A stretch of DNA of 64,000 nt from an uncultured Chloroflexota bacterium (GCA_947085195.1 CAMTVM010000004.1:1624-65623); one strand, 5' to 3'. Shown: positions 6,178 through 30,318, counted from the first letter of the stretch. Notes: a model not told the origin generated them from the sequence alone. Numbers and translations: made by a program.

Positions 6178-6412
6178 TGACAGATGCGGCGCTCCGTGAT
6201 CGCGGGCTGGCATCGCCGCGCCGGGACCTCTCCGCCCGGCGCGCCCGGCTACGCCCCGTGCCGCGCTCAGGCGTACCCTTGCGGGAGCGCATGACGCCGG
6301 TCGGCCCATCTTCGGCGTGACCTTCGGACCGCTTCGCCGGGCCATGGGCAGGTGACGCGGGCGCGACCAGCTCGGCGACGATCGGGCTACACCAATAACC
6401 AGCGAGGTTCCA

Positions 6413-7270
6413 TTGCATCCTGTCGTCGAGCGCGAGCAGCTCTCCCCGAACGTCGTCCGCCTCGTCGTCGAGGCTCCCCGGATCGCGAAGGTCCGGCGTC
6501 CCGGCCAGTTCGTCATCGTCCGGAAGGGTCCGGGCGCGGAGCGCATCCCGCTGACGATCGCCGACAACGATCCCGGGGCCGGGACCATCACCCTGATGAT
6601 CCAGGCCGTCGGCGCCAGCACCACCGAGCTCTGCGCGCTGCAGGTGGGCGAGGCGATCACCGATGTCGCCGGCCCCCTCGGCCAGGAGACGGAGCTGATC
6701 AAGACCGGGCACGCCGTGTGCGTGGGCGGCGGCGTGGGTACCGCGGTGATCCTGCCGATTGCCCGCGAGCTCGCCCGGCGCGGCGTCCACGTGACCAGCG
6801 TCATCGGCGGCCGCTCGAAGGAATGGGTCATCCTGGAAGCCGAGCTACGGGGCTGCGGCGACGTGGTCGTCTGCACCGACGACGGCAGTTACGGCCGCCA
6901 CGGCTTCGTGACCCAGGCCCTCAAGGACCTGCTGGACGCGGGCGGCGTGGATGCCGTCTACGCGGTCGGCCCGGTGCCGATGATGAGCGCCGTGTCCGAG
7001 ATGACCAGGCCCTACGACGTCGAGACCACCGTCTCGCTCAACGCGATCATGGTCGACGGCACCGGGATGTGCGGCGGCTGCCGCGTGACGATCGGTGGCG
7101 AGACCAAGTACGCCTGCGTTGACGGCCCGGAGTTCGACGCCCACAAGGTGAACTTCCAGGAGCTGGCAGACCGCCTGACCACCTATCGCTCCTTCGAGCA
7201 GGCGGCCCTCCAGCGCCAGAAGGACGACGAGGCCAAAGGCGCCTGTGCGACCACAGAGGTGAAGGCATGA
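6413..7270 (+). CDS. nfnA: NADH-dependent reduced ferredoxin:NADP+ oxidoreductase small subunit / sulfide dehydrogenase beta (PyrK-like FAD + [2Fe-2S])
   Basis: Track ORF. HPVVEREQLSPNVVRLVVEAPRIAKVRRPGQFVIVR and C-terminal CGGCRV match PyrK/SudB/NfnA family. Probable TTG start with GCGAGG 7 nt upstream. Confidence 0.8.
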   Translation: MHPVVEREQLSPNVVRLVVEAPRIAKVRRPGQFVIVRKGPGAERIPLTIADNDPGAGTITLMIQAVGASTTELCALQVGEAITDVAGPLGQETELIKTGHAVCVGGGVGTAVILPIARELARRGVHVTSVIGGRSKEWVILEAELRGCGDVVVCTDDGSYGRHGFVTQALKDLLDAGGVDAVYAVGPVPMMSAVSEMTRPYDVETTVSLNAIMVDGTGMCGGCRVTIGGETKYACVDGPEFDAHKVNFQELADRLTTYRSFEQAALQRQKDDEAKGACATTEVKA

Positions 7271-8781
7271 CCGAGCCCGCGTCCCCGGTGCCGGCGGCAG
7301 ATTCCGAGGGCGAACCCGCCAGGCCCGCGCTCAGCAACAAGGAGCGGATGACCATCGGCCGGGTATCGATGCCCGAACAGGAAGGCGAGATCCGCGCCCG
7401 GAACTTCGGCGAGGTCAACCTCGGCCTCACCTACGAGCTGGCGCTGCTGGAGGCGGAGCGCTGCATCCAGTGTCCCAAGCCGTTCTGCGTGGATGGCTGC
7501 CCGGTCCGGGTCGACATCCCGCGCTTCATCAAGTTCCTCCGCGAGGGCGACCTGCCCGCCGCCGCGGAGAGCCTCCTCGGCGACAACGCGCTCCCCTGTG
7601 TCACCGGCCGCGTGTGCCCCCAGGAGATCCAGTGCGAGGCCGTGTGTATCCGTACCAAGAAGGGCGACTCGGTCGCCATCGGCTATCTCGAGCGATTCGT
7701 GGCGGACTGGGCCCAGCAGAACCCCGACGCCCTGCCCAAGGTTGAACCCGGCAGCACGGGCAAGCGGATCGGGATCGTCGGTTCCGGCCCGGCCGGCCTC
7801 ACCGCCGCCGGTGAGCTCGCCCGCAAGGGCCACGACGTCACCGTGTTCGAGGCGTTCCACGCTCCGGGCGGCGTCCTGATCTACGGCATCCCGGAGTTCC
7901 GGCTGCCCAAGGACATCGTCCAGGCCGAGGTGGACCGGCTGGTCCGCGAAGGCGTGAAGATCCAGGTCGACGCGATCATCGGCCGCACCTACACCGTGCC
8001 GGAGCTGCGCGAGGAGTACGACGCGCTGTTCCTGGCGGTCGGCGCGGGTCTACCGGTGTTCATGAACGTCCCAGGCGAGAACCTCAAGGGTGTGTACTCG
8101 GCCAACGAGTACCTGACCCGCGTCAACCTCATGGGTGCCTGGAGCGCGGACTCCAGGACCCCCATCCTCCACGGCCAGCGAGTCGTGGTGGTCGGCGGCG
8201 GCAACGTGGCGATGGACTCCGTCCGGACCGCGAAGCGACTGGGTGCTGCCGAGGCGACCATCGTCTACCGCCGCTCCGCAGACGAGCTTCCCGCCCGGAA
8301 GGAAGAGGTCCACCACGCGATCGACGAGGGCGTCGTATTCGACTACCTCACCGCCCCGGTCGAGGTCATCGGCGACGAGAACCGGTGGGTCACGGGCCTG
8401 AAGTGCGTGAAGATGGAGCTGGGTGAGCCGGACGGGAGCGGCCGCCGACGGCCGATCAGGATCGAGGGCTCCGAGTTCACGATCGACTGCGATCTCGTGG
8501 TCGTGGCCATCGGCACCAAGGCCAACCCGCTGCTCACCGGCAGTGCGCCGGAGCTCAGCGTCAACGAGTATGGCTACCTCGTAGCCGACGAGTACGGCAT
8601 GACCAGCATGCCCGGCGTGTTCGCGGGCGGCGACATCGTGCGTGGCGCCGCCACGGTCATCCTCGCCATGGGCGACGGCAAGCGGTCAGCCTTCGCGATC
8701 GACTCCTGGCTCAACGGCGTGTGGCCGCCGGTCGGGGCCGACAAGGAGACGAAGCCGAAGGAGCCCGCCGCCGCCGGCTGA
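7267..8781 (+). CDS. nfnB: NfnB / glutamate synthase small-chain (GltD) family oxidoreductase with ferredoxin-like N-terminus
   Basis: Track ORF. CIQCPKPFCVDGCPV, GIVGSGPAGL and VVVVGGGNVAMD motifs. ATGA overlap with nfnA stop. Confidence 0.85.
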   Translation: MTEPASPVPAADSEGEPARPALSNKERMTIGRVSMPEQEGEIRARNFGEVNLGLTYELALLEAERCIQCPKPFCVDGCPVRVDIPRFIKFLREGDLPAAAESLLGDNALPCVTGRVCPQEIQCEAVCIRTKKGDSVAIGYLERFVADWAQQNPDALPKVEPGSTGKRIGIVGSGPAGLTAAGELARKGHDVTVFEAFHAPGGVLIYGIPEFRLPKDIVQAEVDRLVREGVKIQVDAIIGRTYTVPELREEYDALFLAVGAGLPVFMNVPGENLKGVYSANEYLTRVNLMGAWSADSRTPILHGQRVVVVGGGNVAMDSVRTAKRLGAAEATIVYRRSADELPARKEEVHHAIDEGVVFDYLTAPVEVIGDENRWVTGLKCVKMELGEPDGSGRRRPIRIEGSEFTIDCDLVVVAIGTKANPLLTGSAPELSVNEYGYLVADEYGMTSMPGVFAGGDIVRGAATVILAMGDGKRSAFAIDSWLNGVWPPVGADKETKPKEPAAAG

Positions 8782-9058: not shown

Positions 9059-10786
9059 ATGGACAAGATCCTGCGCATCGACATGGGCGCCGAGGACGGG
9101 CCCACGACGACGGTCGAGCCGGTCGGTCAGTACGCCGGCCTGGGCGGCCGCGCCATGACATCGCTCGTGGTCAGCAAGGAGGTCGACCCTCTCTGTCATC
9201 CCCTGAGCGCTGCGAACAAGCTCGTGTTCGCTCCGGGCCTGCTCACCGGCTCCGCCGCCTCGACCAGCGGCCGGATCTCGGTCGGCTGCAAGAGCCCGCT
9301 GACGGGCGGCATCAAGGAGGCGAACGCAGGCGGCCAGGCGGGCCAGGCGCTGGCGCGGCTCGGCTACGCCGCGGTCATCGTCGAGGGCGAGCCTGCCGGC
9401 GACGACCTGTGGACCGTCAAGATCGACAAAGGGGGCGTCTCGTTCAAGGTCGACAACAGCCTCAGGATGACCGGTACCTATGCCACGGTCGAGAAGCTCG
9501 TCGGCGATTACGGATCCAAGGTCACCTTCATGGTCATCGGCCAGGCCGGTGAGATGAAGCTCGCCGGTGCCTCCATCGCGGCCTGCGACCGGGAGCTGCG
9601 CCCCACCCGGCACATGGGCCGCGGCGGCGTCGGCGCCGTCATGGGCTCCAAGAAGATCAAGGCATTCATCCTCGACGAAACCGGCACGTCGCTGCGCCAG
9701 CCGCTGCACCCGGAGCGCTTCAAGGCCGCGGCGAAGATCTTCAACGACGGCCTCCGCAGCCACGGCGTCTCGGGGCAGGGTCTGCCCCTGTTCGGCACCA
9801 ACGTCCTGACCAATATCCTCAACGAGGTCGGCGGCTACCCCACCCGCAACTTCAGCTCGGGCCAGTTCGAGGGCGCGACGAAGATCAGCGGCGAGACCCA
9901 GGCCGCGACGATGACCGAGCGCGGCGGCCTGGCGACCCACGCCTGCCACCGTGGCTGCATCATCCAATGCTCCGGCATCTACAACGACGCCACGGGCAAG
10001 TACGTCAGCAAGCAGGCCGAATACGAGACCATCTGGTCGCACGGCGGCCACTGCGGCATCTCCGACCTCGACATCATCCAGCAGCTCGACCGCATGGACG
10101 ACGACTTCGGCCTCGACACGATCGAGACCGGCGTCGCGATCGGCGTCGCGATGGAGGGCGGCCTGCTGCCCTTCGGCGATGGCGAGGGCGCCATCCGCGT
10201 CCTTGCGGAAGTCGGCCAGGGCACCCCGCTCGGCCGGATCATCGGAAGCGGTGCCGCGGCCACGGGCAGGGCATTCGGCGTCTCGCGCGTCCCGGTGGTC
10301 AAGAACCAGGCCCTTCCGGCGTACGATCCGCGTGCCGTCCAGGGCATCGGCGTCACGTATGCGACCACCCCGATGGGCGCCGACCACACGGCCGGCTACG
10401 CGGTGACGGCCAACGTGCTCAAGGTCGGCGGGTTCGTCGACCCGCTCCAGACCGAGGGCCAGGTCGACCTGTCGCGCGCCCTCCAGATCAACACGGCCGT
10501 CATCGACTCCAGCGGGATGTGCCTGTTCGTGGCGTTTCCGGTCATCGACCAGCCGGAGACGTTCACCGCCTTCGTTGAGCTCGTCAACAGCTTCTATGGC
10601 ATCGAGGCCGACGTCACGGCCTTCGGCCAGCAGATCCTGTCGGCCGAGCGTGATTTCAACGCCCGCGCCGGGTTCACGGCGATCGACGATCGCCTGCCGC
10701 GCTTCTTCGAGACGGAGCAACTCCCCCCGCACAACGTCACCTTCAATGTGACGCACGAGGAGCTGGACTCGGTCTTCAACTGGTAG
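9059..10786 (+). CDS. aor: tungsten-containing aldehyde:ferredoxin oxidoreductase (AOR family)
   Basis: C-terminal 575 aa of track ORF 8642..10786. MDKILRIDMGAEDG...AFILD... ; AOR_N and AOR C-terminal pterin-binding features. Start at ATG 9059 with GAAAGGA upstream; earlier ORF part is out-of-context junk. Confidence 0.85.
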   Translation: MDKILRIDMGAEDGPTTTVEPVGQYAGLGGRAMTSLVVSKEVDPLCHPLSAANKLVFAPGLLTGSAASTSGRISVGCKSPLTGGIKEANAGGQAGQALARLGYAAVIVEGEPAGDDLWTVKIDKGGVSFKVDNSLRMTGTYATVEKLVGDYGSKVTFMVIGQAGEMKLAGASIAACDRELRPTRHMGRGGVGAVMGSKKIKAFILDETGTSLRQPLHPERFKAAAKIFNDGLRSHGVSGQGLPLFGTNVLTNILNEVGGYPTRNFSSGQFEGATKISGETQAATMTERGGLATHACHRGCIIQCSGIYNDATGKYVSKQAEYETIWSHGGHCGISDLDIIQQLDRMDDDFGLDTIETGVAIGVAMEGGLLPFGDGEGAIRVLAEVGQGTPLGRIIGSGAAATGRAFGVSRVPVVKNQALPAYDPRAVQGIGVTYATTPMGADHTAGYAVTANVLKVGGFVDPLQTEGQVDLSRALQINTAVIDSSGMCLFVAFPVIDQPETFTAFVELVNSFYGIEADVTAFGQQILSAERDFNARAGFTAIDDRLPRFFETEQLPPHNVTFNVTHEELDSVFNW

Positions 10787-10802
10787 TCGCCGTCACCGCC
10801 CG

Positions 10803-12149
10803 ATGGGGCCGCGCCTGGAGCGGCCGATGAGCGTCCCGCTGCCCGTGCCCGACCCGGTGCCGGCTCATCGGCGTGCTCACCCGTCCAAGCTGTTCGTCGA
10901 GGTCACGACGCGTTGCAATCTCCGCTGTGCGATGTGCGTCAAGTACGCGCCGGGGCAGGGCCTGGTGGAAGGCGACATGACCGAGGAGACGTTCGAGCGC
11001 CTCTCGCCCGCCTTTCCGCTCCTCGAGTCGCTGGTGCTCAACGGCATCGGCGAGCCGCTCCTCCACCGGGGCCTCGAGGGGTTCATCGCGCGCGCGAAGG
11101 CGAGCCTGCCGGCCGATGCCTGGGTCGGCTTCCAGACCAACGGCCAGCTCATCGGCGCCCGCCGCGCGGAGGCGCTCGTGGCGGCTGGCGTGGACCGGAT
11201 CGCGATCTCCGCGGACGCCGTGAGCCCCGAGCGGCTCCGCTCGATCCACGGCGGGGCCCGCCTGGCACCCATCGAGGCCGGCGCGGGGCGCCTCCACGAC
11301 AGTGCCGCGGCCCTCGGGCGGCGACTCTCCCTGGGCCTCGAGTTCGTCGCGATGCGCGACAACCTCGACCAGCTCCCGCTGCTCGTGCGCTGGGCGGCCC
11401 GTCATCGGTTCGAGTTCATCATCGTCAGCCACCTCCTGGCCTACGAGCCGTCGATGGCGGAGCACGCCGCATTCAGCCCCACGTCCGACCGGGCGCTGGC
11501 GGTGTACCGGACCTGGCGCTCCCGGGCAGAGGCTGACGGGATCGACCTCGGTCGCTACCTCGCGTCGCGCCACCGCTTCGCGCCGCCGAAGGAGGATGAG
11601 CGCGCGATCCGGCTGGTGAAGGAGATGGTCGCTGACGCCAGGGATCGCGGCATCTCGCTCAGGATCGCGGACCTGCTCCGCTTCGACGAGGCGTGTCTCG
11701 AGGCTACCGAGGCCGCCTTCACCGAGGCCTCGTCGCTCGCCGCCGAGCTGGGCGTCGAGCTCCGGTTGCCCTCGACCGTACCCACCCAGGTCCGGCGCTG
11801 CGAGTTCGTGGAGGAGGGGTCCGCGTTCGTGTCCTGGGACGGCGGCCTCCACCCGTGCTACTTCCTGTGGCACCGGTTCGACTGCTACCTCGGGGGGATC
11901 GCGAAGACCGTCCGGCCGCGGTCGTTCGGGAATGTCGACGACGCCGGGATCCTCGAGATCTGGAACGGGCAGCCGTGGCGGACGTTCCGGGGCGACGTCA
12001 CCCGATATGACTTTCCGTTCTGCTACGACTGCAACCTCGCGATGTGCGACTACGTCCAGGACGGCGACTTCGAGCAGGACTGTCACCTGGTCCAGGTGCC
12101 GTGTGCGGCGTGCCTGTGGTGCACGGGGCCGTTCCAGTGCCTGCGCTGA
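10803..12149 (+). CDS. radical SAM protein with C-terminal Cys-rich SPASM/twitch-like domain
   Basis: Track ORF. N-terminal CNLRCAMC (CxxxCxxC) and 10 Cys in last 120 aa incl. CYDCNLAMC ... CAAC. 17 nt downstream of aor. Confidence 0.75.
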   Translation: MGPRLERPMSVPLPVPDPVPAHRRAHPSKLFVEVTTRCNLRCAMCVKYAPGQGLVEGDMTEETFERLSPAFPLLESLVLNGIGEPLLHRGLEGFIARAKASLPADAWVGFQTNGQLIGARRAEALVAAGVDRIAISADAVSPERLRSIHGGARLAPIEAGAGRLHDSAAALGRRLSLGLEFVAMRDNLDQLPLLVRWAARHRFEFIIVSHLLAYEPSMAEHAAFSPTSDRALAVYRTWRSRAEADGIDLGRYLASRHRFAPPKEDERAIRLVKEMVADARDRGISLRIADLLRFDEACLEATEAAFTEASSLAAELGVELRLPSTVPTQVRRCEFVEEGSAFVSWDGGLHPCYFLWHRFDCYLGGIAKTVRPRSFGNVDDAGILEIWNGQPWRTFRGDVTRYDFPFCYDCNLAMCDYVQDGDFEQDCHLVQVPCAACLWCTGPFQCLR

Positions 12150-12233
12150 ACGACGGCGCGGGATGCCGCGGGGGGCGGGAGCGGCGTCGTGCCGGTTCCG
12201 GGGTTCGCCGGGTCGCGTGACCCTCGGCGGCCG

Positions 12234-13406
12234 TCAGGCCACCGCGCCCGCGAGAGAGCGCAGTGCCGACAGCGTCTGGTCGATGTCGTCGGTGGTCGTG
12301 AACGCGCCCGGCGACAGGCGCACCGTGCCTCGCGGCCAGGTTCCGACCGTGCGGTGCGCAAGGGGCGCGCACTGGAGTCCCGCCCGGACAGCGATCCGGA
12401 ACGAGCTGTCGAGCGCCGCAGCGAGGTCGACTGGCTCCCAGCCCACGAGCGTGATCGAGGTCGTCGCGACCTGGCGTGCGGCATCGCCCGTGCCGTGGAC
12501 CGCCAGGCCGGGGATCGTGCGCAGGCCGTCGAGGAGCCGCGCGGTCAGCACCTGCTCGTGGGCACGGATCGCGGCGATGCCTCGCTCCGCGAGGTATGCC
12601 AGGGCGGCGCCCAGCCCGGCGATGCCGACCGTGTTGAGCGTGCCGACCTCGAGTGCCTCGGGCAGCTCCTCGGGCTGGCGGTCCTCCTCGGATCGGGTCC
12701 CGGTCCCACCCTGGCGGAGGGGACGCAGCCGGATGCCCGGTCCGACATACAGGCCGCCGGTTCCCGTCGGCCCCAGCAGGCCCTTGTGGCCCGGGAGCGC
12801 GACCAGGTCGAGTCCCAGCGCGGCGACGTCGAGGGGCAGGACACCCGCAGTCTGCGCGGCGTCGACGAGCACCAGCGCTCCATGGTCGTGCGCGAGCCGG
12901 GCCGCCTCGGCGATCGGGAGGATCGTGCCGGTGACGTTGCTCGCGTGGGTCAGGGCCACGAGACGGGCCGGCCCGGCACACAGCGCGCGCTCGAGGTCGC
13001 CGGGGTCGAGCGTGCCGTCCGGCGCGCACGGGACCCGCGTGACCAGGACGCCGGCGTCGCCCAGCGCGACCAGGGGCCTTGCCACGGCGTTGTGCTCGAC
13101 GCTGGTCGTGATGACCCTGTCCCCTGCCGCGAGCAGGCCCCACAGCGCCAGGTTCAGGGCGTCCGTCGCGTTGGCGGTGAAGACGACCCGAGACGGGTCG
13201 GGCGCCCCGAGGAGTGTCGCGAGACCGCGGCGAGTGGCCGTCACGACCGCCTGCGCCCCGAGTGCCAGTGCGTGGCCGGACCGGCCGGGGTTGCCCGCCG
13301 TGGTCGCCAGGAAGCCGCCCATCGCCTCGATCACGCCCGGGGCCTTGGGGAACGAGGTGGCGGCATTGTCGAGGTAGATCACGCGCCCGTCGTCAGGTTC
13401 CGACAT
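12234..13406 (-). CDS. cysteine desulfurase / class V aminotransferase (IscS/NifS/CsdA-like)
   Basis: Track ORF 12234..13469(-). IYLDNAATSFP near N-terminus; PLP-lysine context ALPGHKGLLGPTGTGG. Start at ATG 13406 (MSEPDDGRV), overlaps moeB stop by 14 nt; alternative GTG 13382. Confidence 0.8.
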   Translation of the reverse strand: MSEPDDGRVIYLDNAATSFPKAPGVIEAMGGFLATTAGNPGRSGHALALGAQAVVTATRRGLATLLGAPDPSRVVFTANATDALNLALWGLLAAGDRVITTSVEHNAVARPLVALGDAGVLVTRVPCAPDGTLDPGDLERALCAGPARLVALTHASNVTGTILPIAEAARLAHDHGALVLVDAAQTAGVLPLDVAALGLDLVALPGHKGLLGPTGTGGLYVGPGIRLRPLRQGGTGTRSEEDRQPEELPEALEVGTLNTVGIAGLGAALAYLAERGIAAIRAHEQVLTARLLDGLRTIPGLAVHGTGDAARQVATTSITLVGWEPVDLAAALDSSFRIAVRAGLQCAPLAHRTVGTWPRGTVRLSPGAFTTTDDIDQTLSALRSLAGAVA

Positions 13407-14433
13407 AGCGCGCGTACAGCGAGCGGGCGACCGCGACGTCGTCGGTGCCCTTGATGATCGCGCGGCCATCGGCGAACACGGTCATCTCGTGACCGTCGAC
13501 CACCGACCGGAGCAGGTAGTCGCTCGAGGTCACGGTCCCGGTGCCTGCGAGCTTGAGGGCCAGGACCCGGAGGTCGAGCCGAACGGCCCGACCCGGGCTC
13601 ACCTGGACGGCGTCGCGACCGCACAGCGTCGCCGTCCGGCTCGTGACCCTGGCCTCGAGATACTCGAAGCGGCGCTCGCCGCAGCACGGGCAGTCCGGTC
13701 GCCGGGGTACGCCCTCGGTGTGGAGGTGGTCGTTCGTCCACACGTCGAACGCGGTAACGCCGCGGCTGAGGTGCTCGCGGTCGCCGACGAGGAGCTTCAC
13801 TGTCTCGGTCCACTGCATCGCGGCGACGGTCACGACGGTCGACGCAAGCACGCCAGCGGTTTCGCAGGTCTCCATCGTGCCCGCCGGCTGGGGCGTCGGA
13901 AACAGGCACCGGAAGCACGCCGTGTCGCCGGGCAGAACCGTCATCGACATCCCGGTCGAGCCGACCGCGCCACCGTAGACCCAGGGAATGCCTGCTTTCA
14001 CGCAGGCGTCGTTGAGCAGGTAGCGCGTCTCGAGGTTGTCCGTGCCGTCGACCACGACGTCGGCCCGGGCGACCAGCGCCTCCACGTTGGCGGGGGTGAC
14101 ATCCGCGACGAGCGCCTCGACATCGACTCCGGCGTTGATCCGGCCGACGGCTTCGGCCGCCGCGACCGCCTTGGGCGACCCGGCCGCAGCGTCGGCCTCG
14201 TCGTACAACAGCTGGCGCTGGAGGTTGCTGAGTTCCACGAAGTCGCGGTCGACGACCACCAGGTGGCCCACCCCGGAACGTGCCAGCAGGTCAATCACCG
14301 AACAACCCAGGGCGCCACACCCGACCACGAGCACACGGCCCGCCGCGAGTCGCGCCTGTCCCTCGGTGCCGATGCCCCAGAACCGGGCCTGGCGCGAGTA
14401 GCGGTCCCCGGTCGCGGGGGTGCTGGGTGCCAC
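13393..14433 (-). CDS. moeB: ThiF/MoeB-family E1-like adenylyltransferase with CPCC zinc motif and 85-aa C-terminal extension of unknown fold
   Basis: Track ORF 13393..14628(-). DRYSRQARFWGIG... VLVVGCGALGC (Rossmann GxGxxG), DPDCPCCG. GTG start at 14433 inferred from family N-terminus. Confidence 0.75.
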   Translation of the reverse strand: MAPSTPATGDRYSRQARFWGIGTEGQARLAAGRVLVVGCGALGCSVIDLLARSGVGHLVVVDRDFVELSNLQRQLLYDEADAAAGSPKAVAAAEAVGRINAGVDVEALVADVTPANVEALVARADVVVDGTDNLETRYLLNDACVKAGIPWVYGGAVGSTGMSMTVLPGDTACFRCLFPTPQPAGTMETCETAGVLASTVVTVAAMQWTETVKLLVGDREHLSRGVTAFDVWTNDHLHTEGVPRRPDCPCCGERRFEYLEARVTSRTATLCGRDAVQVSPGRAVRLDLRVLALKLAGTGTVTSSDYLLRSVVDGHEMTVFADGRAIIKGTDDVAVARSLYARYVGT

Positions 14434-14708
14434 GTGGTGTCCTCTGCATCGATCGGGCGCACGACGCGTCCGCCTGGATCCGGCCCGTCGGCGGCTCGGA
14501 AGATCACACTCGCCGCGTGCCGAACCCGCCGGGTGCAGCACCGGGGACGCGCATCGGCTCGACGCCTCCCATTCCGCGGCACGACGCCCCGACCGGGTAG
14601 CGCCGTTCGGCCCGTTCCGCGCGGACATCCGGCCGGGGCAGCGCGGCCGCCCCGGTGTCCCGAGTCGTCGAGCACCGGAACGGGCGAGCGCAGCTCAACC
14701 GCTGCCGC

Positions 14709-14939
14709 TCACCCACCGCCGATCACCGGGAAGACCGCCAGGACGCTGCCGTCAGCGAGTCGGTCGTCAAACTCCACGTTGCGGCCGTTGACCATCATCA
14801 CCCCGACCTCGGGGCGCGGGATCTCGAGCTCGTCGACGATCTCGCCGACCGTCGGCGATTCCGGGTAGGCGCGCGTCTCGATGGCAAACCGGCCGCGCTG
14901 GAAGCTGGCGAACAGCTTGATCGTCAGCTGCACCGACAC
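14709..14939 (-). CDS. moaD: MoaD/ThiS-family sulfur-carrier protein ending in Gly-Gly
   Basis: In track ORF 14709..15056(-). VSVQLTIKLFASFQRGR...VLAVFPVIGGG; diglycine C-terminus, ~76 aa from GTG 14939. Confidence 0.7.
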   Translation of the reverse strand: MSVQLTIKLFASFQRGRFAIETRAYPESPTVGEIVDELEIPRPEVGVMMVNGRNVEFDDRLADGSVLAVFPVIGGG

Positions 14940-14967
14940 CTGCGCGTGGCCTCCGTCCCGGTCGCCG

Positions 14968-15504
14968 TCAGGCGGCGACACGTAGCAGGATCTCACGATC
15001 CAGGGCGATGCGCTCCAGGTCCGGATCCGGGCCCAGGATCCTGGCCGCCTCGTCATGGGCCAGCACGATCCCGCGGCGCAGGATCGAGGGGCCGACGCCC
15101 GGGATGATGAGGTTGAACAGCTTCACTCGGATGGTGGGGGCCGACTCTTCGTCGCGGCCACCCCCGTGGCCCTCGTGCCAGCTGACCTGGGCGCGCATCG
15201 CCGAGTAGTAGCTGGACCGGCGAAGCGTGGCCCCGACGAGCCCCGGCATCGCCGCCGAGAGCGTCAGGGTGGACCCGGGATGGAGCATGGCGCGGTCCAG
15301 GTCATCGACGACCATCGAGTCCACGAACACGGTCGCGATCACGTGGCGGACATAGTCGGGCTCGATCGCCAGGTCAACCGAGAGGAAGTCTGCGACCGAG
15401 CGCGGACCGGCGAGCGAGACGACGACGCCGCGCTGGAACAGCGCGCCCAGATCGCTCCAGCGCACGCGGTCGGCGGAGATGGTGAGGGTGACGGGATCGG
15501 TCAT
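14968..15504 (-). CDS. hypothetical protein (178 aa) between SHOCT-membrane gene and moaD
   Basis: C-terminal part of track ORF 14968..15888(-). MTDPVTLTISADRVRWSDLGALFQRGVVV... I recognise no family; upstream ORF part is Arg/Pro junk so start set at ATG 15504. Confidence 0.45.
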   Translation of the reverse strand: MTDPVTLTISADRVRWSDLGALFQRGVVVSLAGPRSVADFLSVDLAIEPDYVRHVIATVFVDSMVVDDLDRAMLHPGSTLTLSAAMPGLVGATLRRSSYYSAMRAQVSWHEGHGGGRDEESAPTIRVKLFNLIIPGVGPSILRRGIVLAHDEAARILGPDPDLERIALDREILLRVAA

Positions 15505-15748
15505 CGCCCGTGCATCATTCGCGAGGCCCACGCTCCGGGTCACGGGCCGGATGGACCGTCGCGTCGGGCAGGTGGCGCCGGGACGGCCGGACCGCCGTGC
15601 GGTGCGCGGACGCACCCGGGGCCGGCTCGACCGGCGGACGGCTGCCGGTCTCAACCGCCGCTGAGCACCAGGAACAGCCGTGAGCCCGCGATCACGCCCA
15701 GGATGATGGCAGCCACCATGATCACGGTCACGAGCGGGCGGGGAACCG

Positions 15749-16399
15749 TCACGAGCGCGCCTCCAGCTCGGCGATGATCGATGCCTTGGCGGTCTCGAAA
15801 TCCTCCGGTGTCGGCAGGCCACGGTCCCGCATGTCGGCCAGGCGCTCCAGCCGGTCGAGCAGTGCCTGCCCGCGCTGCGGCGGGCCACCCGGCGGCCGGG
15901 CCGTGGCCTGAGCCGGCGTGGCTCCAGCCGTGAAGCCGGCGCGCATCGCGACGGCCACGATTACGATCGGCGTGAGAGCCATCAGCTCGAACAGGATCCC
16001 CGGGATCAACCAGCCCCGGACGATCTCGTCCGCCTCGGGCGGCGGGTTGATGATCCCGTGATCGAGGAAGTTCCAGCCGAGGGCCCCGAACAGGCCTGAC
16101 CACCCGACGAGGACCGCGGCGATGGCCCACCGAGCGCCCACGCGGCTGCCGCAGGCCATCGCGATCCCGCCGAACAGGACCACGCCGAAGATGCCGAGCA
16201 TCATCGCCGGAGCCGTGCCGTCCGGACACGACTGCGCCGAGACGAAAGGCCCACCGTCCACACAGAATCCGCCGACGTCCATGACCGCCCGCATCGCGTG
16301 GAACACCAGGGTGACGCACATGGTCAGCCCGCCGAGTCCGATCGCCAATCCCAGGACCGCGCCCAATCCCGGGTCCGGCCGCCGTGCCCCGAAGCCCAT
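15749..16399 (-). CDS. membrane protein with C-terminal SHOCT domain
   Basis: Track ORF 15749..16441(-). Several hydrophobic segments; C-terminal LLDRLERLADMRDRGLPTPEDFETAKASIIAEL is a typical SHOCT helix pair. Confidence 0.55.
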   Translation of the reverse strand: MGFGARRPDPGLGAVLGLAIGLGGLTMCVTLVFHAMRAVMDVGGFCVDGGPFVSAQSCPDGTAPAMMLGIFGVVLFGGIAMACGSRVGARWAIAAVLVGWSGLFGALGWNFLDHGIINPPPEADEIVRGWLIPGILFELMALTPIVIVAVAMRAGFTAGATPAQATARPPGGPPQRGQALLDRLERLADMRDRGLPTPEDFETAKASIIAELEARS

Positions 16400-16450
16400 G
16401 GCCACCCTCCTGCCCTCGCCGGCCGGGTGGCCGGATGTCACAGGCGCAGG

Positions 16451-17862
16451 CTACGGCCGGACGGCCTCCATGCGATCGAGGATCAGGCGCTTGACGCCCT
16501 CGAGCGGCACCCGTTCCTGGGTCATCGAGTCGCGGTCGCGGACCGTGACCGCGCCGTCGTCGAGCGAGTCCACGTCAACCGTGACGCACCACGGCGTGCC
16601 GATCTCGTCCTGGCGCCGGTAGAGCTTGCCGATGGCGGCCGTGTCGTCGTAGACGGCCATCATGTCGCGCTTGAGGTCGCCCAGGAGACGGTGGCATATG
16701 TCCACGATCTCGGGGCGCTTCTTGAGCAGCGGCAGGACGGCCACCTTGTACGGTGCGATGTCCGGGTGCAACCCCAGGACCACGCGCGTCTCGCCGCGGA
16801 CCTCCTCCTCCCGATAGGCGTCGATGAGGAACGTGAACGCCGCACGGTCCGCGCCCGCCGCGGTCTCCACGACCCACGGGATGAAGTGCTCGCCGGACGC
16901 CTGGTCGAAGTACTCGAGGTTCTCGCCGGACGCCTTCGCGTGGTTGCCCAGGTCGAAGTCGCCGCGGTTGTGGATGCCTTCGAGCTCCTTCCAGCCGAAC
17001 GGGAAGCGGTACTCGACGTCGATCGCCTTCTTCGCGTAGTGCGCCAGCTCGTCGGGGGCGTGCTCTCGGAACCGGAGGCGGGCCGGGGTCACGCCGTAGG
17101 CCTCGTACCACGCCTTCCGCCTGGGCAGCCACTCCTCGAAGGCCTGCGAGGCGGCCTCACCGGGGCGCACGAAGTACTGCATCTCCATCTGCTCGAACTC
17201 CCGCATCCGGAACACGAAGTTGCCGGGCGAGATCTCGTTGCGGAACGACTTGCCGATCTGGGCGATGCCGAACGGGATCTTCCTGCGCGAGCTCTGCTGG
17301 ACGTTCTTGAAGTTGACGTAGCTGCCCTGCGCGGTTTCCGGGCGGAAGTAGACGATCGAGCCGTCGTCCTCGACGGGTCCCATGTGGGACGTGAACATGA
17401 GGTTGAACCGGCGCGGCGCCGACAGCGGCCCCGCGTCATTGGGGCAGACCAGGCCGAGGCGCCCGACGATCGTGTCGTCACGCAGGTCGGTCGCCGAGAG
17501 ATCCTCAGCGCCCGGCAGCTCGTCCAGGCGGAACCGGCGGCGGCAGGTCGCGCACTCCACGAGCGGGTCGCTGAACGAGCCGACGTGCCCCGACGTGATC
17601 CAGACCTGGGGGTGCATCAGGATCCCGGCGTCCAGGCCCACGATGTCGTTGCGGTCCTGGACCATCGCCCGCCACCAGGCGCGCTTGACGTTGTTCTTGA
17701 GCTCCACGCCCAGGGGTCCGTAGTCCCAGACGGCGTTGATTCCGCCGTAGATCTCCGATGACGGGAAGATGAAGCCGCGGCGCTTGGACAGGCTGACGAT
17801 GGTCTCGAGGTTCGCGACGGCGGGCGCGACGTCGCCCGGATCGAGGGATTCGGCGGTCACGG
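16451..17862 (-). CDS. glyQS: glycine--tRNA ligase (dimeric class II GlyRS)
   Basis: C-terminal 470 aa of track ORF 16451..18658(-). [11 protein letters not shown]...FRNEISPG...GADRAAFT match GlyRS. GTG start at 17862 with GGAGA upstream; earlier part is antisense junk. Confidence 0.9.
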
Positions 17863-22397: not shown

Positions 22398-22705
22398 GTT
22401 CCGGGTTGCGGTGCGGTTGCGAGCCGGTTGTCGACGAGATGTACGAAGTCTTGAGATTTGTCCGGCCGGGGGGCCCGTAGCATGGCTCCAAGCCACCCAT
22501 CCGGATGGGTCGTGTTTCCCGGTGTGCCCCTGCGGAGAAAGCCCGAAGGGGGACCGGCTCCGGTCGGAAAGGAGGACGCCACCGAGCGATCTCGCACCGG
22601 TTCCCGCCTGCGCGGCGCCCGGTCGACGACCGCGAGCAGCCGGCGACGGCACCGGGTCCGTCGTGGCCCGCCAGCGGGCTATCCACCAATGAGGGAGTGC
22701 ATGGC

Positions 22706-23434
22706 ATGACGTGGGATATGAACATCTTCATCGCGGAGGTCTTCGGGACTGGGTTCCTGATCCTCCTCGGTGACGGCGTGGTCGCAGGCGTCCTGCTCGC
22801 CAAGTCCAAGGCGCAGAACGCGGGCTGGATCGTCATCACTGCCGCATGGGCGTTCGCCGTGTTCGTCGGCGTCAGCGTCGCCGGACCGATCAGCGGGGCG
22901 CACATCAACCCGGCCGTCACCATCGGCCTCGCGGTAAACGGCAGCCTCGCACTTGGGCTGGTGCCGGTGTACATCATCGGCCAGTTCGTCGGCGCGTTCA
23001 TCGGCGCCACCCTGGTCACGATCCACTACTGGGATCATTTCAAGCAGACCGAGGACCAGGGTCTCAAGCTCGCGGTGTACAGCACCGGGCCGGGCATCCG
23101 CAACATCCCGCTGAACGTCGTGTCCGAGATCATCGGCACGTTCGTGCTCGTGTTCGTCGTGATGGCGTTCGGCAACAACCAGGGCCTGGCCGGGCTCGGC
23201 CCGCTAGCTGTCGCCCTGCTCGTGTTCTCGATCGGCATGTCGCTCGGCGGGACCACCGGCTACGCGATCAACCCTGCCCGCGACCTGGGGCCGCGGATCA
23301 TCCACGCCATCCTGCCCGTCCCGGGCAAGGGCGGCTCCGACTGGGAGTACAGCTGGGTGCCGGTCGTCGGGCCGATCACCGGCGCCGTGCTCGCGGCGGT
23401 CGTCTACCTCGCCATCTGGAAGCCCCTGTTCTAG
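22706..23434 (+). CDS. glpF: aquaglyceroporin / glycerol uptake facilitator
   Basis: C-terminal part of track ORF 22505..23434(+). Two NPA boxes (HINPAVT, INPARD); GAGGGAG SD before ATG 22706. Confidence 0.85.
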   Translation: MTWDMNIFIAEVFGTGFLILLGDGVVAGVLLAKSKAQNAGWIVITAAWAFAVFVGVSVAGPISGAHINPAVTIGLAVNGSLALGLVPVYIIGQFVGAFIGATLVTIHYWDHFKQTEDQGLKLAVYSTGPGIRNIPLNVVSEIIGTFVLVFVVMAFGNNQGLAGLGPLAVALLVFSIGMSLGGTTGYAINPARDLGPRIIHAILPVPGKGGSDWEYSWVPVVGPITGAVLAAVVYLAIWKPLF

Positions 23435-23521
23435 CTCGCACGGCCACGGGGCGCGCCCGGTCACCGGGTGACGGCGCGCCCCGGACCCCGAGCCCGGCGT
23501 CCGTCGGCCACAGGAGGAACG

Positions 23522-24520
23522 ATGAAGAAGCTCATCAACGCACCCGATCACGTCGTGGACGAGGCACTCGCTGGGATGCTCGCCGCACATCCGGAGCTCA
23601 TCCGGGTCGAGGCGCCGAACATCGTTGTCCGCAGGGACGCGCCCCGGCCCGGCAAGGTCGGGGTGATCTCGGGCGGTGGCTCGGGTCACGAGCCGATGCA
23701 CGGAGGATTCGTCGGGCTGGGCATGCTCGACGCCGCCTGTCCGGGCGCGGTGTTCACCTCGCCGGTCCCCGACCAGATGCTCGCCGCCACCAAGGCTGTG
23801 GACGCCGGCGCCGGGGTCCTGCACATCGTCAAGAACTACACCGGCGACATCATGAACTTCGAGCTCGCGGCCGAGATGGCCCGGGCAGAGGGACACGAGG
23901 TCTCGGCGGTCGTCATCGCCGACGATGTCGCCGTCAAGGATTCGCTGTACACGGCCGGCCGGCGGGGCGTCGGCGGCACGGTGCTCGCGGAGAAGATCGT
24001 CGGCGCGGCTGCCGAGGCGGGTGCGGATCTCGCGACCGTCACGGCGCTCTGCCAGCGCGTCCAGGACAACGTCCGCTCGATGGGCATGGCGCTCACGAGC
24101 TGCACGGTCCCGGCCGCCGGCAAGCCGACGTTCGAGATCGGCGACGACGAGATGGAGATCGGCGTCGGCATCCACGGAGAGCCCGGGCGCACGCGCATGA
24201 AGGTCGCGAGCGCCGACGAGATCACCGGGATGCTCGCCGGGCCCATCCTCGACGACCTCCCCTACCAGCGCGGCGACCGCGTCCTCGCGTTCGTCAACGG
24301 CATGGGCGGCACGCCGCTCATCGAGCTCTACGTCGTGTTCAACAGCCTCGCGCAGATCCTCGAGGGGCGCGGGATCACGATCGCGCGCAGCCTCGTCGGC
24401 AACTGGATCACGTCGCTCGACATGGCCGGGTGCTCGATCACGCTCCTGCGGCTCGACGACGAGATGCTCCGCTACTGGGATGCTCCGGTCATGACCCCCG
24501 CCCTGCGGTGGGGAATCTGA
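23522..24520 (+). CDS. dhaK: dihydroxyacetone kinase DhaK subunit
   Basis: In track ORF 23468..24520(+). [19 protein letters not shown]...[12 protein letters not shown]...; AGGAGG SD. Confidence 0.9.
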
Positions 24521-24569
24521 CCGTCCGCCCAACACCATCACCTCCTACTGGCCGAAAGGACACACGGGC

Positions 24570-25211
24570 ATGGCGTCACGCTTCGCCTACGCCGACGCGA
24601 TCGCCTGGATCCAGTTGCTCGCGCAGGTGCTGCGCGACGCGAAGGAGGAGCTCACGGCCCTCGACTCCGCGATCGGCGACGCCGACCACGGGATCAACAT
24701 GGACCGCGGGTTCCAGGCGGTGCTCGCCAAGCTGCCGACCTACCCCGAGGGGGATGTCGGCGCGCTGCTCAAGGGCGTCGGCATGACGCTCGTGTCCACC
24801 GTCGGCGGCGCCAGCGGCCCGCTCTACGGGACCTTCTTCCTCCAGCTCGGCGGTGCCACCGCCGGGAAGGCGGAGGCCGAGCCCGCGGAGCTGGCCGGCG
24901 CGCTGGACGCCGGCGTCGCCGGGATCCAGCGGCTGGGCAAGGCCGAACCCGGCGACAAGACCATGCTCGACGCGCTGATCCCCGCCCGCGACGCGATGCG
25001 GGCCGCCGTCGACCAGGGGGCGTCGGTCGCCGACGCCCTCGCCGCGGCCGTCGCCGCCGCGGAGCAGGGCATGCTCGCCACCATTCCGCTCGTGGCCCGC
25101 AAGGGACGCGCGAGCTATCTCGGAGAGCGCAGCGCGGGCCACCAGGACCCGGGCGCAACCTCCTCCTACCTGCTGCTCAAGGCCGCATGGGACGCCTTGT
25201 CCAGGGTGTGA
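24570..25211 (+). CDS. dhaL: DhaL paralog 3
   Basis: Track [21 protein letters not shown] ... [21 protein letters not shown]. Confidence 0.85.
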
Positions 25212-25242
25212 CCATGGCCTCGGGCGAACACGGGAGTGCAAC

Positions 25243-26739
25243 ATGACCAAGTACGTTGGCGCCCTCGACCAGGGCACGACGAGCACCCGGTTCATGGTCT
25301 TCGACCACGCCGGCGGCGTCGTCGCGATCCACCAGAAGGAGCACGAGCAGATCTACCCGAAGCCCGGCTGGGTCGAGCACGACCCGATGGAGATCTGGGC
25401 GCGCAGCCAGGAGGTCATCGCGGGCGGGCTCCAGAGGGCCGGCATCACTGGATCCGACCTCGCGGCCGTCGGCATCACCAACCAGCGCGAGACCACCGTC
25501 GTATGGGACAAGACGACGGGCAAGCCGGTCTACAACGCGATCGTGTGGCAGGACACCCGCACGGACGTCTACGTCAACGAGTTCAGCAAGGACGGCGGCC
25601 AGGACCGCTTCCGGGCGAAGGTCGGCCTCCCGCTCGCCACCTACTTCTCGGGCCCGAAGGTCAGGTGGGTCCTGGACAACGTCGAGGGTGCGCGCGCCAA
25701 GGCCGACGCCGGAGACCTCCTGTTCGGCAACATCGACACGTGGTGCATCTGGAACCTCACCGGCGGCGTCAACGGCGGCGTGCACGTCACGGACGTGACC
25801 AACGCCAGCCGCACGATGCTCATGAACCTCGCGACCCTCGACTGGGACGACGAGATCCTGGGCATCATGGGCATCCCGAAGTCGATGCTCCCGGCGATCA
25901 AGGCCTCGTCCGAGGTCTACGGGACGGGCGTCGGCGATCTCGCGGGCGTGCCGATCGCCGGCGATCTCGGCGATCAGCAGGCGGCCCTGTTCGGCCAGAC
26001 GTGCTTCTCGCCCGGAGAGGCGAAGAACACCTACGGCACCGGCAACTTCATGCTCCTCAACACGGGCACCAAGGCTGTCCAGTCCAAGAACGGCCTGCTC
26101 ACCACCCTGGGCTACCAGATCGGCGACCAGCCGGCCGTGTACGCCCTCGAGGGCTCGATCGCCATCACCGGCGCGCTCGTGCAGTGGCTCCGGGACAACC
26201 TGGGGATGATCACCTCGTCGGCCGAGGTCGAGGCGCTGGCCAAGACCGTGGACGACAACGGCGGCGTCTACTTCGTCCCGGCGTTCTCCGGCCTGTTCGC
26301 GCCGTACTGGAAGAGCGACGCCCGCGGCGTCATCGCCGGCCTGACCCGCTACGTCAACAAGGGCCACATCGCGCGTGCCGTCCTCGAGGCGACCGCGTGG
26401 CAGACCCGTGAGGTGCTCGACGCGATGAACGCCGACTCCGGCGTTGATCTCACGGCCCTCAAGGTCGACGGCGGCATGGTCTTCAACGACCTGCTGATGC
26501 AGTTTCAGGCCGACGTCCTCGGCGTCCCGGTCATCCGGCCGAAGGTCGCGGAGACCACGGCCCTGGGCGCCGCCTACGCGGCCGGCCTCGCGGTCGGCTA
26601 CTGGGCGGAGGTCGAGGACCTGCGGGCCAACTGGGCCAAGGACAAGGAGTGGCAGCCCGCCATGGACGCGGCCACCAGCGAGAAGGACTACGGCTTCTGG
26701 AAGAAGGCGGTAACCCGCACCTTCGACTGGGTCGAGTAG
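25243..26739 (+). CDS. glpK: glycerol kinase
   Basis: Track [20 protein letters not shown]...[13 protein letters not shown]... classic FGGY/GlpK. Confidence 0.9.
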
Positions 26740-26812
26740 TCCCCGTTCGGCGAACCCGACGGCCCCGGCCCCTACCAGGGGTCCGGGGCCGTCACCTTAG
26801 TGAGGGCACACC

Positions 26813-27220
26813 GTGAGCCCGGAACCCGTCGCATACGTCGGCCTCGTCGTCGTCTCGCACTCCGCCCGGATCGCGGAGGGCACGGTTGAGCTCGCCCGGC
26901 AGATGGCCGGGTCGGACGTCCCCATCGTGCCCGCCGGCGGCATGGCCGACGGCGCCATCGGCACCGATGCCGCGCGCATCGCGGCGGCGATCGGCGAAGC
27001 CGACCGTGGGGCCGGCGTGGTGGTCGTCGCGGACCTGGGCAGCGCCATCCTCGCGACCCGCACCGCCCTTGAGCTGCTCGGCGGCCCGGAGCACGTCCGG
27101 CTGTCCCGGGGACCGCTCGTCGAAGGTGCGATCATCGCGGCCGTACAGGCGAGCACCGGCTCGGGCCTGGACGAGGTCCTGGAGGCAGCCGAGGGTGCCG
27201 CCTTCCTGCCCAAGGGCTAG
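26813..27220 (+). CDS. dhaM: DhaM-like EIIA-family phosphotransfer protein, paralog 2
   Basis: Track ORF. VGLVVVSHSARIAEG... parallel to 21313..21717 product. Confidence 0.65.
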   Translation: MSPEPVAYVGLVVVSHSARIAEGTVELARQMAGSDVPIVPAGGMADGAIGTDAARIAAAIGEADRGAGVVVVADLGSAILATRTALELLGGPEHVRLSRGPLVEGAIIAAVQASTGSGLDEVLEAAEGAAFLPKG

Positions 27221-27299
27221 AGTTGGACCGGTCCGCCGGCGCGACGGGACCGGCGAGTGACGCAGCCCGGGGCGCACTGACCCGCGGGCACGCAGCGAG

Positions 27300-28994: not shown

Positions 28995-30318
28995 CATCGT
29001 CGTCATCGGCGCCGGGCTCGCCGGGCTCGTCGCGGCCACGCGCCTGGCGGAGGCCGGAGCGGTCGTCACGCTCGTTGCGAAGGGCCACGCCGGGACCCAC
29101 TGGGGCGCCGGCGGCCTGGACGTGGCGGCCCCAGCGGGCGCGGGCACGCCGGCCCAGGGCGTCCGTCACCTCGCGTCGCTGGACCACCCGTACGCCTTCC
29201 TAGCGCCGGACGCGGCGCCATCGGTGGCCTGGCTCCTCGAGCGCCTCGCGGACTCCGGGCTCCCGTACGCGGGCACGCTCGACGCGCCGATCCGGCGCGT
29301 GCCGACGGCGATCGGCGGGACGCGGCGCGTGGCCATCGTGCCCGGCGCACAGGCGCCAGCGCTCCGCCCCTGGGACCCGGGGGAGATCCTCGTCGTCGCC
29401 GGGCCGGCGGGCTTCAAGGACTTCTGGCCGGCCGCAATCGCCGACAGCCTCTCCCGAGAGGACGTGTGGCTCGGCGAGGACCGTCCGGCGCTGGTGCGGG
29501 GGGTCGCCGTCGAGCTGCCGGGCCTCGGCTCGCAGCGCAACCTCAACGCCCTCGCGCTGGCGCACCGGTTCGAGGATCCGGCTCGGCGGGCTGACGACCT
29601 CGACCGGTTCGCGCTGGCCGTGGAGCGCGCGGCGGGTGGCGGCCAGGGGCGCGTCGCGCTCCCGGCGGTGTTCGGTCTCGAGCGCCACGGGGACGTCTGG
29701 GCAGAGCTCAGGGCCCGGCTGCCGCTGGAGCCGTTCGAGGTGCCGCTCGTGCCGCCGAGCATTCCCGGGATGCGCCTGTGGCAGGCGCTTCGCCGCCGGA
29801 TCCGCGACGCGGGCGGCCGAGTGCAGGTCGGCGAGGCGGTTGCCCGGATCGAGGTCGAGCACGGCCGCGTCACCGCAGTCGAGATGGAGGCCGCGACGCG
29901 ACGCCACCGCATCCGGACCTACGCGGTCGTCCTCGCGACCGGCGGACTGGCGGGCGGCGGGCTGGTGGCGACGGCCCACGGCCTCGTGGTCGAGCCGCTC
30001 CTCGGCCTCCACGTCGAGGCGCCGGGCGTCGACGCCTGGCTCATGCGCGATGCGCTCGACCCGGCGGGCCACCCCATCGAGGCCGCCGGCATCCGGACGG
30101 ACCCGGCGCTGCGTCCCCTGGATCCCGCGACGGGGCGCGCCGCCTTCCCCAACGTGCTCGTTGCGGGCGCCATGCTCGTCGGCCAGCGCGCGCTCCGGGA
30201 GCGGTGCGGTGACGGGATCGCCGTCGCCAGCGGCTGGCGGGCGGCCAACGAGCTGGCCGCGGACGCCACGAGGATCCCGATCGACCGCGCGCTGCCCGCC
30301 GTGAGGACCGACCAGTGA
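28981..30318 (+). CDS. glpB: anaerobic glycerol-3-phosphate dehydrogenase subunit B
   Basis: Track ORF. ADIVVIGAGLAGLVAA N-terminal FAD motif; position between glpA and glpC. Confidence 0.8.
   Translation: MPHADIVVIGAGLAGLVAATRLAEAGAVVTLVAKGHAGTHWGAGGLDVAAPAGAGTPAQGVRHLASLDHPYAFLAPDAAPSVAWLLERLADSGLPYAGTLDAPIRRVPTAIGGTRRVAIVPGAQAPALRPWDPGEILVVAGPAGFKDFWPAAIADSLSREDVWLGEDRPALVRGVAVELPGLGSQRNLNALALAHRFEDPARRADDLDRFALAVERAAGGGQGRVALPAVFGLERHGDVWAELRARLPLEPFEVPLVPPSIPGMRLWQALRRRIRDAGGRVQVGEAVARIEVEHGRVTAVEMEAATRRHRIRTYAVVLATGGLAGGGLVATAHGLVVEPLLGLHVEAPGVDAWLMRDALDPAGHPIEAAGIRTDPALRPLDPATGRAAFPNVLVAGAMLVGQRALRERCGDGIAVASGWRAANELAADATRIPIDRALPAVRTDQ

Follow-up and report, generated by a model that had tools for sequence, protein, structure and literature searches.

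A sulfur-carrier gene cluster convergent with AOR in an uncultured Chloroflexota bacterium, and the conserved 178-residue protein family linked to it

AOR-linked sulfur-carrier systems and the Chloroflexota locus

Tungsten enzymes of the aldehyde:ferredoxin oxidoreductase (AOR) family, which reduce unactivated carboxylic acids and remove aldehydes by detoxification, are sought after as biocatalysts, but heterologous hosts mature them poorly. Their cofactor is tungsten bis-molybdopterin (W-bis-MPT). The subject of this analysis is a 64,000-nucleotide stretch of DNA from an uncultured Chloroflexota bacterium (GCA_947085195.1, CAMTVM010000004.1:1624-65623; hereafter the window), in which the genes of a sulfur relay stand tail-to-tail with an AOR gene and a radical S-adenosylmethionine (rSAM) gene, and in particular a 178-aa conserved protein encoded with the relay, here called unk178. 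The gene set is of a known type; its new part is the unk178 family, which comprises about 1,200 clusters at 50% identity and has been missed by the AOR papers cited below, by Pfam and by NCBIfam.

Neighbourhoods in which AOR is linked to MoaD and MoeB have been proposed (Iyer, Burroughs and Aravind, 2006; PMC1779556, Table 1, row 3) to supply the AOR tungsten cofactor with its molybdopterin (MPT). Their likeness to the present locus lies in a distinct MoaD beside AOR, often accompanied in those clusters by MoeB, MoeA, a pyridine-nucleotide disulfide oxidoreductase and Fe-S proteins, and in a sporadic, mobile-looking spread through groups that also carry unk178 (Geobacter, Pelobacter and Syntrophobacter). 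By contrast, no conserved uncharacterised partner, dedicated desulfurase or C-terminal extension of the E1 is described for them, and they are co-directional, whereas the window relay is convergent with AOR. A second description, from the Adams laboratory, is of a "ThiS-like" WorX that is encoded with thiF next to WORs and is predicted to act in pterin processing (PMC13328260, 2026). Here, too, a small ThiS-like protein and ThiF, encoded beside WorL, are viewed as cofactor-processing factors and not as subunits; however, a second beta-grasp protein of ~180 aa is not mentioned, and the likeness of the window carrier to WorX is by description only.

Two further systems concern MoaD-like proteins of individual AOR operons. 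In Aromatoleum aromaticum, aorD and aorE "resemble MoaD" (PMC6365974), and co-expression of aorDE raised the activity of recombinant AOR from 4.5 to 16 U/mg, or to 85 U/mg with added tungstate (PMC9295118). Lying downstream of the aor structural genes, this pair offers a precedent for an AOR operon with two beta-grasp proteins. AorE is probably not a member of the unk178 family, since the best 120 matches of a betaproteobacterial unk178 query include no Aromatoleum protein. In Thermococcus kodakarensis, the MoaD-type TK1065 lies between AOR (TK1066) and an rSAM gene (TK1064-TK1066 cluster), and deletion of any of three ubiquitin-like proteins (Ubls), TK1065 included, lowers MPT (PMC11323500). 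The cluster shares with the window a MoaD-type Ubl by AOR and an rSAM gene, one that contributes to MPT and tungsten-cofactor (Wco) levels, but it is archaeal, its description includes no E1, desulfurase or unk178-like gene, and its Ubls, which are redundant, become conjugated to proteins as well.

The chemistry is best framed by E. coli MoaD-MoaE with MoeB and IscS/TusA, in which a desulfurase persulfide, E1 adenylation of a Gly-Gly (GG) carrier, a thiocarboxylate and the dithiolene form the series that is predicted here. The window differs from this MPT synthase in having no MoaE, in a carrier and an E1 that score under the MoaD and MoeB cut-offs, in the TBP-like C-terminal domain of its E1, and in a partner that is probably a beta-grasp protein instead of the MoaE fold. 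Clusters of this type have been assigned to tungsten-cofactor synthesis (PMC1779556, PMC13328260, PMC6365974, PMC11323500), and a conserved ~180-aa partner goes unmentioned in the AOR-cluster literature compared (PMC1779556, PMC13328260, PMC6365974, PMC9295118, PMC11323500, PMC10413684).

The unk178 family and the relay proteins

The unk178 gene (14968-15504, minus strand, ATG start) has no Pfam or NCBIfam model, and even at E<=10 these libraries return only noise. A preliminary description of the window had treated its product as an orphan; it belongs instead to a large AOR-linked family. A word-indexed search finds 576 relatives, all annotated as "hypothetical" and none with a Pfam domain, and an exhaustive profile search finds 1,211 representatives of 50%-identity clusters, 1,083 of them at E<=1e-10. 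At least 515 stretches in one-genome-per-species contigs encode a relative. The hosts comprise Chloroflexota, Geobacter/Desulfuromonadales, Anaeromyxobacter (Myxococcota), Syntrophia, Desulfobacterales, Nitrospirae, Spirochaetes, Acidobacteria and Betaproteobacteria. Complete genomes with the module include that of Anaeromyxobacter oryzae Red232 (NZ_AP025591.1) and genomes of Geobacter and Pelobacter. The nearest homologues are also 178 aa long and align over their full length; among the matches listed, all relatives are stand-alone proteins of about 140-300 aa. Database entries contain no natural fusion of the family to AOR, MoaD or E1, and the longer entries, considered as candidate fusions, are explained by mis-called starts or by expansions of a variable linker.

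Synteny was assessed by mapping the window proteins onto 80 fetched unk178 loci (designated by L numbers), the denominators being the loci with enough flank; 34 loci with at least 5 kb on either side of unk178 make up the well-flanked set. AOR lies immediately upstream of unk178 on the same strand in 50/66 loci, a MoaD-like gene follows within 900 nt downstream in 53/73, and ThiF is found within 2.6 kb in 30/58. Among the well-flanked loci, a distance of 5 kb takes in a MoaD-like gene in 29/34, AOR in 26/34 and ThiF in 23/34, and 11/34 have an rSAM gene within 8 kb. The carrier start is mostly placed -10 to +30 nt from the unk178 stop (48 loci), and 58/60 of the carriers downstream of unk178 end in GG. 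In the Pfam annotation of three large contigs, MoeA, a Mod/Tup-type transporter (periplasmic binding protein, permease and ATPase-TOBE) and TOBE proteins are interleaved with these genes. The association of the relay with the AOR/rSAM pair is no coincidence of the window; the same genes co-occur in other phyla. Relative to the window AOR, those encoded beside unk178 have 57-97% identity, mostly 62-68% even across phyla; they are one conserved clade, which probably moves as a cluster. Identities of 62-68% between Chloroflexota and Desulfuromonadales or Spirochaetes point to horizontal spread of the AOR-unk178-carrier cluster.

An alignment of 80 unk178 sequences from many phyla contains the invariant residues G26, D67, L82-S-A-A-M-P-G88, G91, R95, R104, F130 and N131, and the nearly invariant K128, L129, L89 and A92. 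In a profile-profile comparison, unk178 residues 28-82 match residues 22-69 of the adjacent carrier family (probability 82%, E 1e-5); a second, short match aligns TIRVKLFNL (124-133) with the first strand of the carrier. The AlphaFold2 model (61 homologues) has a predicted local distance difference test (pLDDT) of 81.3 and a predicted template-modelling score (pTM) of 0.76, with residues 1-88 and 121-178 confident and residues 89-120 below pLDDT 50. The tail of the predicted beta-grasp runs on as AAMPG-LVGATLRR and is followed by ~90 more residues; after R104 the sequence varies in length and composition (linker 105-122), a C-terminal alpha/beta domain then opens with K128-LFN131, and the C-termini are not conserved. 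A division into four parts is moderately supported: a ThiS/MoaD-like beta-grasp (~1-88) without the GG end, a strictly conserved arm made up of L82-SAAMPGL-x-GA92, R95 and R104, a variable linker and a small C-terminal alpha/beta domain. A whole-chain Foldseek search gives nothing significant, nor does a profile search of PDB sequences.

Several other identities for unk178 were considered and set aside. There is no free C-terminal GG that would make it a sulfur carrier in its own right, and neither profile, fold nor catalytic site agrees with a JAB/MPN peptidase or an E2/UBC protein. A divergent MoaE, the possibility that the preliminary description had left open, is not borne out by profile or fold comparison with MoaE. 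Internal duplication is weak, the N-terminal and C-terminal halves aligning with an hhalign probability of 15%.

The carrier gene (14709-14939, minus strand) encodes 76 aa from a GTG start that lies behind GGACGGAGG, and its product, WorX/AorD-like, ends in FPVIGGG. The protein matches the Pfam families ThiS (43.3 bits, cut-off 22.5) and Ub-Mut7C (42.8 bits, cut-off 23), and stays below archaeal MoaD (TIGR01687, 24.7 vs 49.5 bits) and SAMP1 (22.6 vs 60). By profile and by the C-terminal Gly-Gly (VIGGG) it is a member of the MoaD/ThiS sulfur-carrier family, for which thiocarboxylate formation is predicted. Canonical MoaD identity was rejected, the score being under the curated cut-off and the scanned window ORFs containing no MoaE.

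The E1 gene (13393-14433, minus strand; GTG start, assigned by analogy with relative L004) encodes a long-form ThiF/MoeB-type adenylyltransferase of 346 aa (Pfam ThiF, 254.9 bits). Its architecture comprises a catalytic Rossmann domain, a Cys4 zinc site and a C-terminal TBP-like domain of ~90 aa, and the motifs YSRQ, GCGALG, DGTDN and CFRC...CPCC, of which CPCC had been noted before, are readable in the translation and conserved in the alignment. The best PDB relatives are MoeB (1jw9) and ThiF (1zud). The protein remains below the equivalog cut-offs of MoeB (NF006444, 221.2/449), ThiF (TIGR02356, 242.4/275.25) and MoeZ (162.3/647), and it aligns end to end with PRK12475, yet at 362.6 against a cut-off of 510. 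The residues past CPCC have no counterpart in the MoeB or ThiF structures, and all relatives of the C-terminal 95 residues are C-termini of "adenylyltransferase/sulfurtransferase" proteins. A fusion of E1 and rhodanese as in MoeZ, MOCS3 or Uba4 was also considered and discarded, as the C terminus is not a rhodanese domain with a catalytic Cys. The motif LCGR (C20, G21 and R22 of the TBP-like domain) is invariant, and by analogy with the rhodanese domain of MoeZ and MOCS3 its cysteine may act as a persulfide carrier.

The desulfurase gene (12234-13406, minus strand) encodes a pyridoxal phosphate (PLP)-dependent class-V cysteine desulfurase of the EF2568/TIGR01977 type (TIGR01977, 423.7 bits vs cut-off 377; Pfam Aminotran_5, 283.9 bits). 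It scores under the cut-offs of SufS (237 vs 475), SclA (359.6 vs 525) and IscS, although the nearest structures are of the SufS/CsdB type, and its translation contains GHK with the PLP lysine and LQCAP with the catalytic Cys. In the fetched loci a desulfurase gene adjoins only long-form E1s (L005, L008, L009, L016, L026); in most loci, largely Geobacter-type ones, the E1 is a short form of ~240 aa. With desulfurase, E1 and GG carrier all encoded, the relay is complete, as had been claimed.

The AOR gene (9059-10786, plus strand; Pfam AFOR_N and AFOR_C) encodes the AOR/WOR large subunit, which is taken to be the relay's client; in the PDB it is closest to AOR 9mqx, P. furiosus 1aor and A. aromaticum AorB 8c0z. 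The following gene (10803-12149, plus strand) encodes a radical-SAM/SPASM putative metalloenzyme maturase that matches TIGR04311 over profile positions 1-423 of 423 (549.5 bits vs 400), has a MoaA-like N-terminus, and partially matches MoaA and TIGR04317, the tungsten cofactor oxidoreductase rSAM maturase. It converges on the relay genes, and the tail-to-tail arrangement with the AOR/rSAM pair that had been described is correct.

A proposed role in tungsten-cofactor maturation

We consider it reasonably probable, if well short of certain, that the locus is an AOR-dedicated branch of tungsten-cofactor maturation in which unk178 is the fourth component. We infer each chemical step, and the adaptor role of unk178, from the gene identities, motifs and linkage observed and from the modelled fold. 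The PLP cysteine desulfurase would convert cysteine sulfur to a persulfide, and the ThiF/MoeB-type E1 would adenylate the C-terminal glycine of the 76-aa carrier. Persulfide sulfur would then turn the carrier acyl-adenylate into a thiocarboxylate, perhaps via the invariant cysteine of the E1 TBP-like domain, and the thiocarboxylate would provide the dithiolene sulfurs of both pyranopterins in the W-bis-MPT of the neighbouring AOR. The MoaA-like rSAM/SPASM maturase would be active in the same pathway. Within this scheme unk178 would be a non-conjugatable MoaD paralogue and an assembly adaptor specific to this AOR clade, which docks the charged carrier, a pterin intermediate or both onto apo-AOR or the synthase. 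The preliminary description had suggested sulfur supply for the tungsten-pterin cofactor, and this role is supported by synteny with AOR across phyla and because AOR-linked MoaD/MoeB clusters have already been described. AOR expression constructs that also include unk178, the desulfurase and the long E1 could give better cofactor loading.

A number of observations weigh against this reading. The 80 aligned unk178 sequences contain no conserved His and, more to the point, no conserved Cys, and the most conserved segment of the protein is modelled at pLDDT <50. The long E1 is found in about 8/40 extracted E1s, and a desulfurase gene stands within 8 kb of unk178 in only 3/34 well-flanked loci. 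MoaA, MoaC, MoaE, MoeA and MogA have no Pfam hit in the 44 likely coding open reading frames (ORFs) of the window, a few remaining candidates being unscanned, so that the earlier statement that no MoaE-like subunit is recognisable holds for this set; likewise, in a Pfam census covering 30 loci and 112 of their unassigned neighbour ORFs, no MoaE, cysteine synthase, JAB or peptide-maturation gene is recurrent. Lacking MoaE in the scanned ORFs and as a recurrent neighbour, the acceptor step is undefined. In addition, many AOR/WorX clusters (T. kodakarensis, C. somerae) have been described without an unk178-like gene, and unk178 is therefore no universal requirement.

A bolder version makes the unk178 family a new catalytic or scaffolding part of tungsten-cofactor assembly, derived from MoaD, whose arm and C-domain replace MoaE or pass the pterin to apo-AOR. 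We regard this as unlikely. If it is true, dithiolene sulfur insertion for the unk178-linked AOR clade would take place on a dedicated, non-canonical synthase complex.

The linkage data can also be read with AOR as the true partner. In the manner of TorD, NarJ or XdhC, unk178 may serve this AOR clade as its own chaperone or small subunit and not act directly in sulfur transfer; it would then adjoin the carrier only because the two share an operon. Linkage to AOR (immediately upstream in 50/66) is as strong as linkage to the carrier, the linked AORs form one tight clade, and eight loci (L029, L054, L061, L064, L065, L074, L078, L083) have AOR and unk178 without a detectable carrier or E1. However, the predicted fold of unk178 is itself that of a sulfur carrier, its gene is usually contiguous with the carrier gene or overlaps it, and in the window, as in other Limnocylindria loci, it is the carrier that unk178 accompanies, AOR lying elsewhere in the cluster. 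A chaperone thus seems to us a minority possibility, with about the same standing as the bolder version.

Somewhat less probable again is the proposal that unk178 is a non-homologous replacement of MoaE, which binds cyclic pyranopterin monophosphate (cPMP) and the thiocarboxylated tail of the carrier to form an AOR-dedicated MPT synthase with the MoaD-like protein. The unk178 gene does occupy the position of the carrier's partner, in tight coupling with the carrier gene, the scanned window ORFs and the recurrent neighbours lack MoaE, and the conserved residues R95, R104, K128, N131 and D67 could bind a phosphorylated pterin. Against it stand the WorX/ThiF-AOR clusters without an unk178-like gene, many of which have been described, and a housekeeping MoaE, which we presume to be most likely present in unk178 hosts such as Geobacter and Anaeromyxobacter. 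Either as a MoaE surrogate or as a cofactor-delivery adaptor, unk178 would define a new step in pyranopterin cofactor biology.

The carrier and E1 may instead, or additionally, serve protein conjugation of the SAMP/TtuB type, with AOR or other proteins as targets. The carrier matches Ub-Mut7C and, weakly, SAMP1 and SAMP2, and the T. kodakarensis Ubls, including the AOR-adjacent TK1065, are attached to specific target proteins (PMC11323500). We nevertheless hold conjugation to be improbable: JAB, E2 and ligase genes are absent from the scanned window ORFs and the 30-locus census, the E1 gene is in translational coupling with that of a dedicated cysteine desulfurase, and the surroundings consist of cofactor-synthesis and metal-uptake genes. 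Another thiocarboxylate pathway (CysO-type cysteine synthesis, another thio-cofactor, SPASM thiolation of peptides made on the ribosome and modified after translation (RiPPs), or a terminal sulfido ligand on tungsten), most of which had been raised as alternatives in the preliminary description, is very improbable: although carrier and E1 score under the MoaD, MoeB and ThiF equivalog cut-offs and peptides are frequent substrates of SPASM enzymes, genes for CysM, a cysteine synthase, Mec/JAB, a precursor peptide, ThiG or thiamin metabolism are neither present in the scanned window ORFs nor recurrent in the 30 neighbourhoods, the rSAM protein is a TIGR04311 maturase related to MoaA and to the tungsten cofactor oxidoreductase maturase, and the AOR tungsten cofactor is best modelled with two oxo ligands and no sulfido (PMC10413684), which makes the dithiolenes the likelier sulfur sink than a terminal sulfido ligand.

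Gene layout and neighbouring genes

The window has a GC content of ~72%, and its nearest relatives are Chloroflexota metagenome-assembled genomes labelled Chloroflexia or Candidatus Limnocylindrales. Gene starts were refined from sequence, coding statistics and relatives. With these starts and the profile matches, all five minus-strand genes listed in the preliminary description are present in the order it gave, namely those for the SHOCT-like membrane protein, unk178, the carrier, the E1 and the desulfurase; a 33-aa ORF and two gaps had been missed. The SHOCT gene and the four conserved-set genes have a GC content at third codon positions (GC3) of 0.89-0.91, as against 0.74-0.75 in both gaps, a contrast that marks these five ORFs as real genes. 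The unk178 and carrier genes are separated by 28 nt. At the other end of the relay, the desulfurase ATG lies 14 nt inside the E1 gene, an overlap with its stop that is exactly as had been stated and amounts to translational coupling.

The longer gap is a non-coding spacer of 275 nt between the carrier and E1 genes (14434-14708, minus strand), with 76% GC and no coding GC3 signal; in the close relative L004, by contrast, only 3 nt separate the carrier and ThiF genes. The spacer resembles nothing in any fetched locus. Neither it nor the region upstream of AOR has an Rfam match, at gathering score or at E<=1, to a Moco/Wco riboswitch or other RNA, and a promoter/terminator scan of 11900-16600 is empty, which is uninformative at such a GC content. 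The second gap, of 146 nt (15505-15650), separates the unk178 gene from the 33-aa ORF (15651-15752, minus strand), which encodes a single-helix membrane protein and whose GTG start overlaps the stop codon of the SHOCT gene. The ORF is kept at the same site in L004, L005 and L006 (~57% identity) and, on this conservation, is probably a real small protein. The SHOCT-like membrane protein (15749-16441, minus strand) is a weak Pfam SHOCT match (18.7 bits vs cut-off 27). Its gene, which had been counted with the unit, lies upstream of unk178 solely in the two closest relatives with an available upstream flank (L004, L006); it is local synteny, outside the conserved module.

Directly upstream of AOR are two plus-strand genes that overlap by 4 nt, one for a PyrK-like (DHODB Fe-S) flavoprotein (6356-7270) and one for a GltD/NfnB-like protein (7267-8781; TIGR01316, 563 bits). 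The pair also stands beside AOR in L004 and L006, and as an NfnAB/SudAB-like pair it could couple AOR-reduced ferredoxin to NAD(P). Further along the plus strand, a glycerol/dihydroxyacetone block (22481-32963) comprises an MIP channel, Dak1, Dak2, an FGGY kinase, EIIA-Man and GlpABC-like FAD/Fe-S dehydrogenases; unrelated to the relay, it may be a source of aldehyde for AOR.

Three features recur around unk178 in other genomes. The only recurrent family in the 112-ORF census is a GT2 glycosyltransferase, in nine Geobacter-type loci: a gene for ~476 aa ends ~150 bp before AOR in L022, L034, L035, L044, L047, L048, L052, L067 and L071 (Geobacter/Desulfuromonadales-type). A 156-aa ORF without a Pfam match (L001, 6340-6810; L012, L018, L021, L023) stands beside MoeA or just upstream of the AOR-unk178 cluster; it recurs in Limnocylindria and Anaeromyxobacter oryzae and may be a further unrecognised cofactor-related gene. 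Finally, a Mod/Tup-type ABC transporter is encoded on the opposite strand between the MoaD-like and ThiF genes in the Limnocylindria loci L002, L003, L009 and L013 (about 10800-13700 in each), an insertion that places oxyanion uptake within the sulfur-carrier module in several loci of this group.

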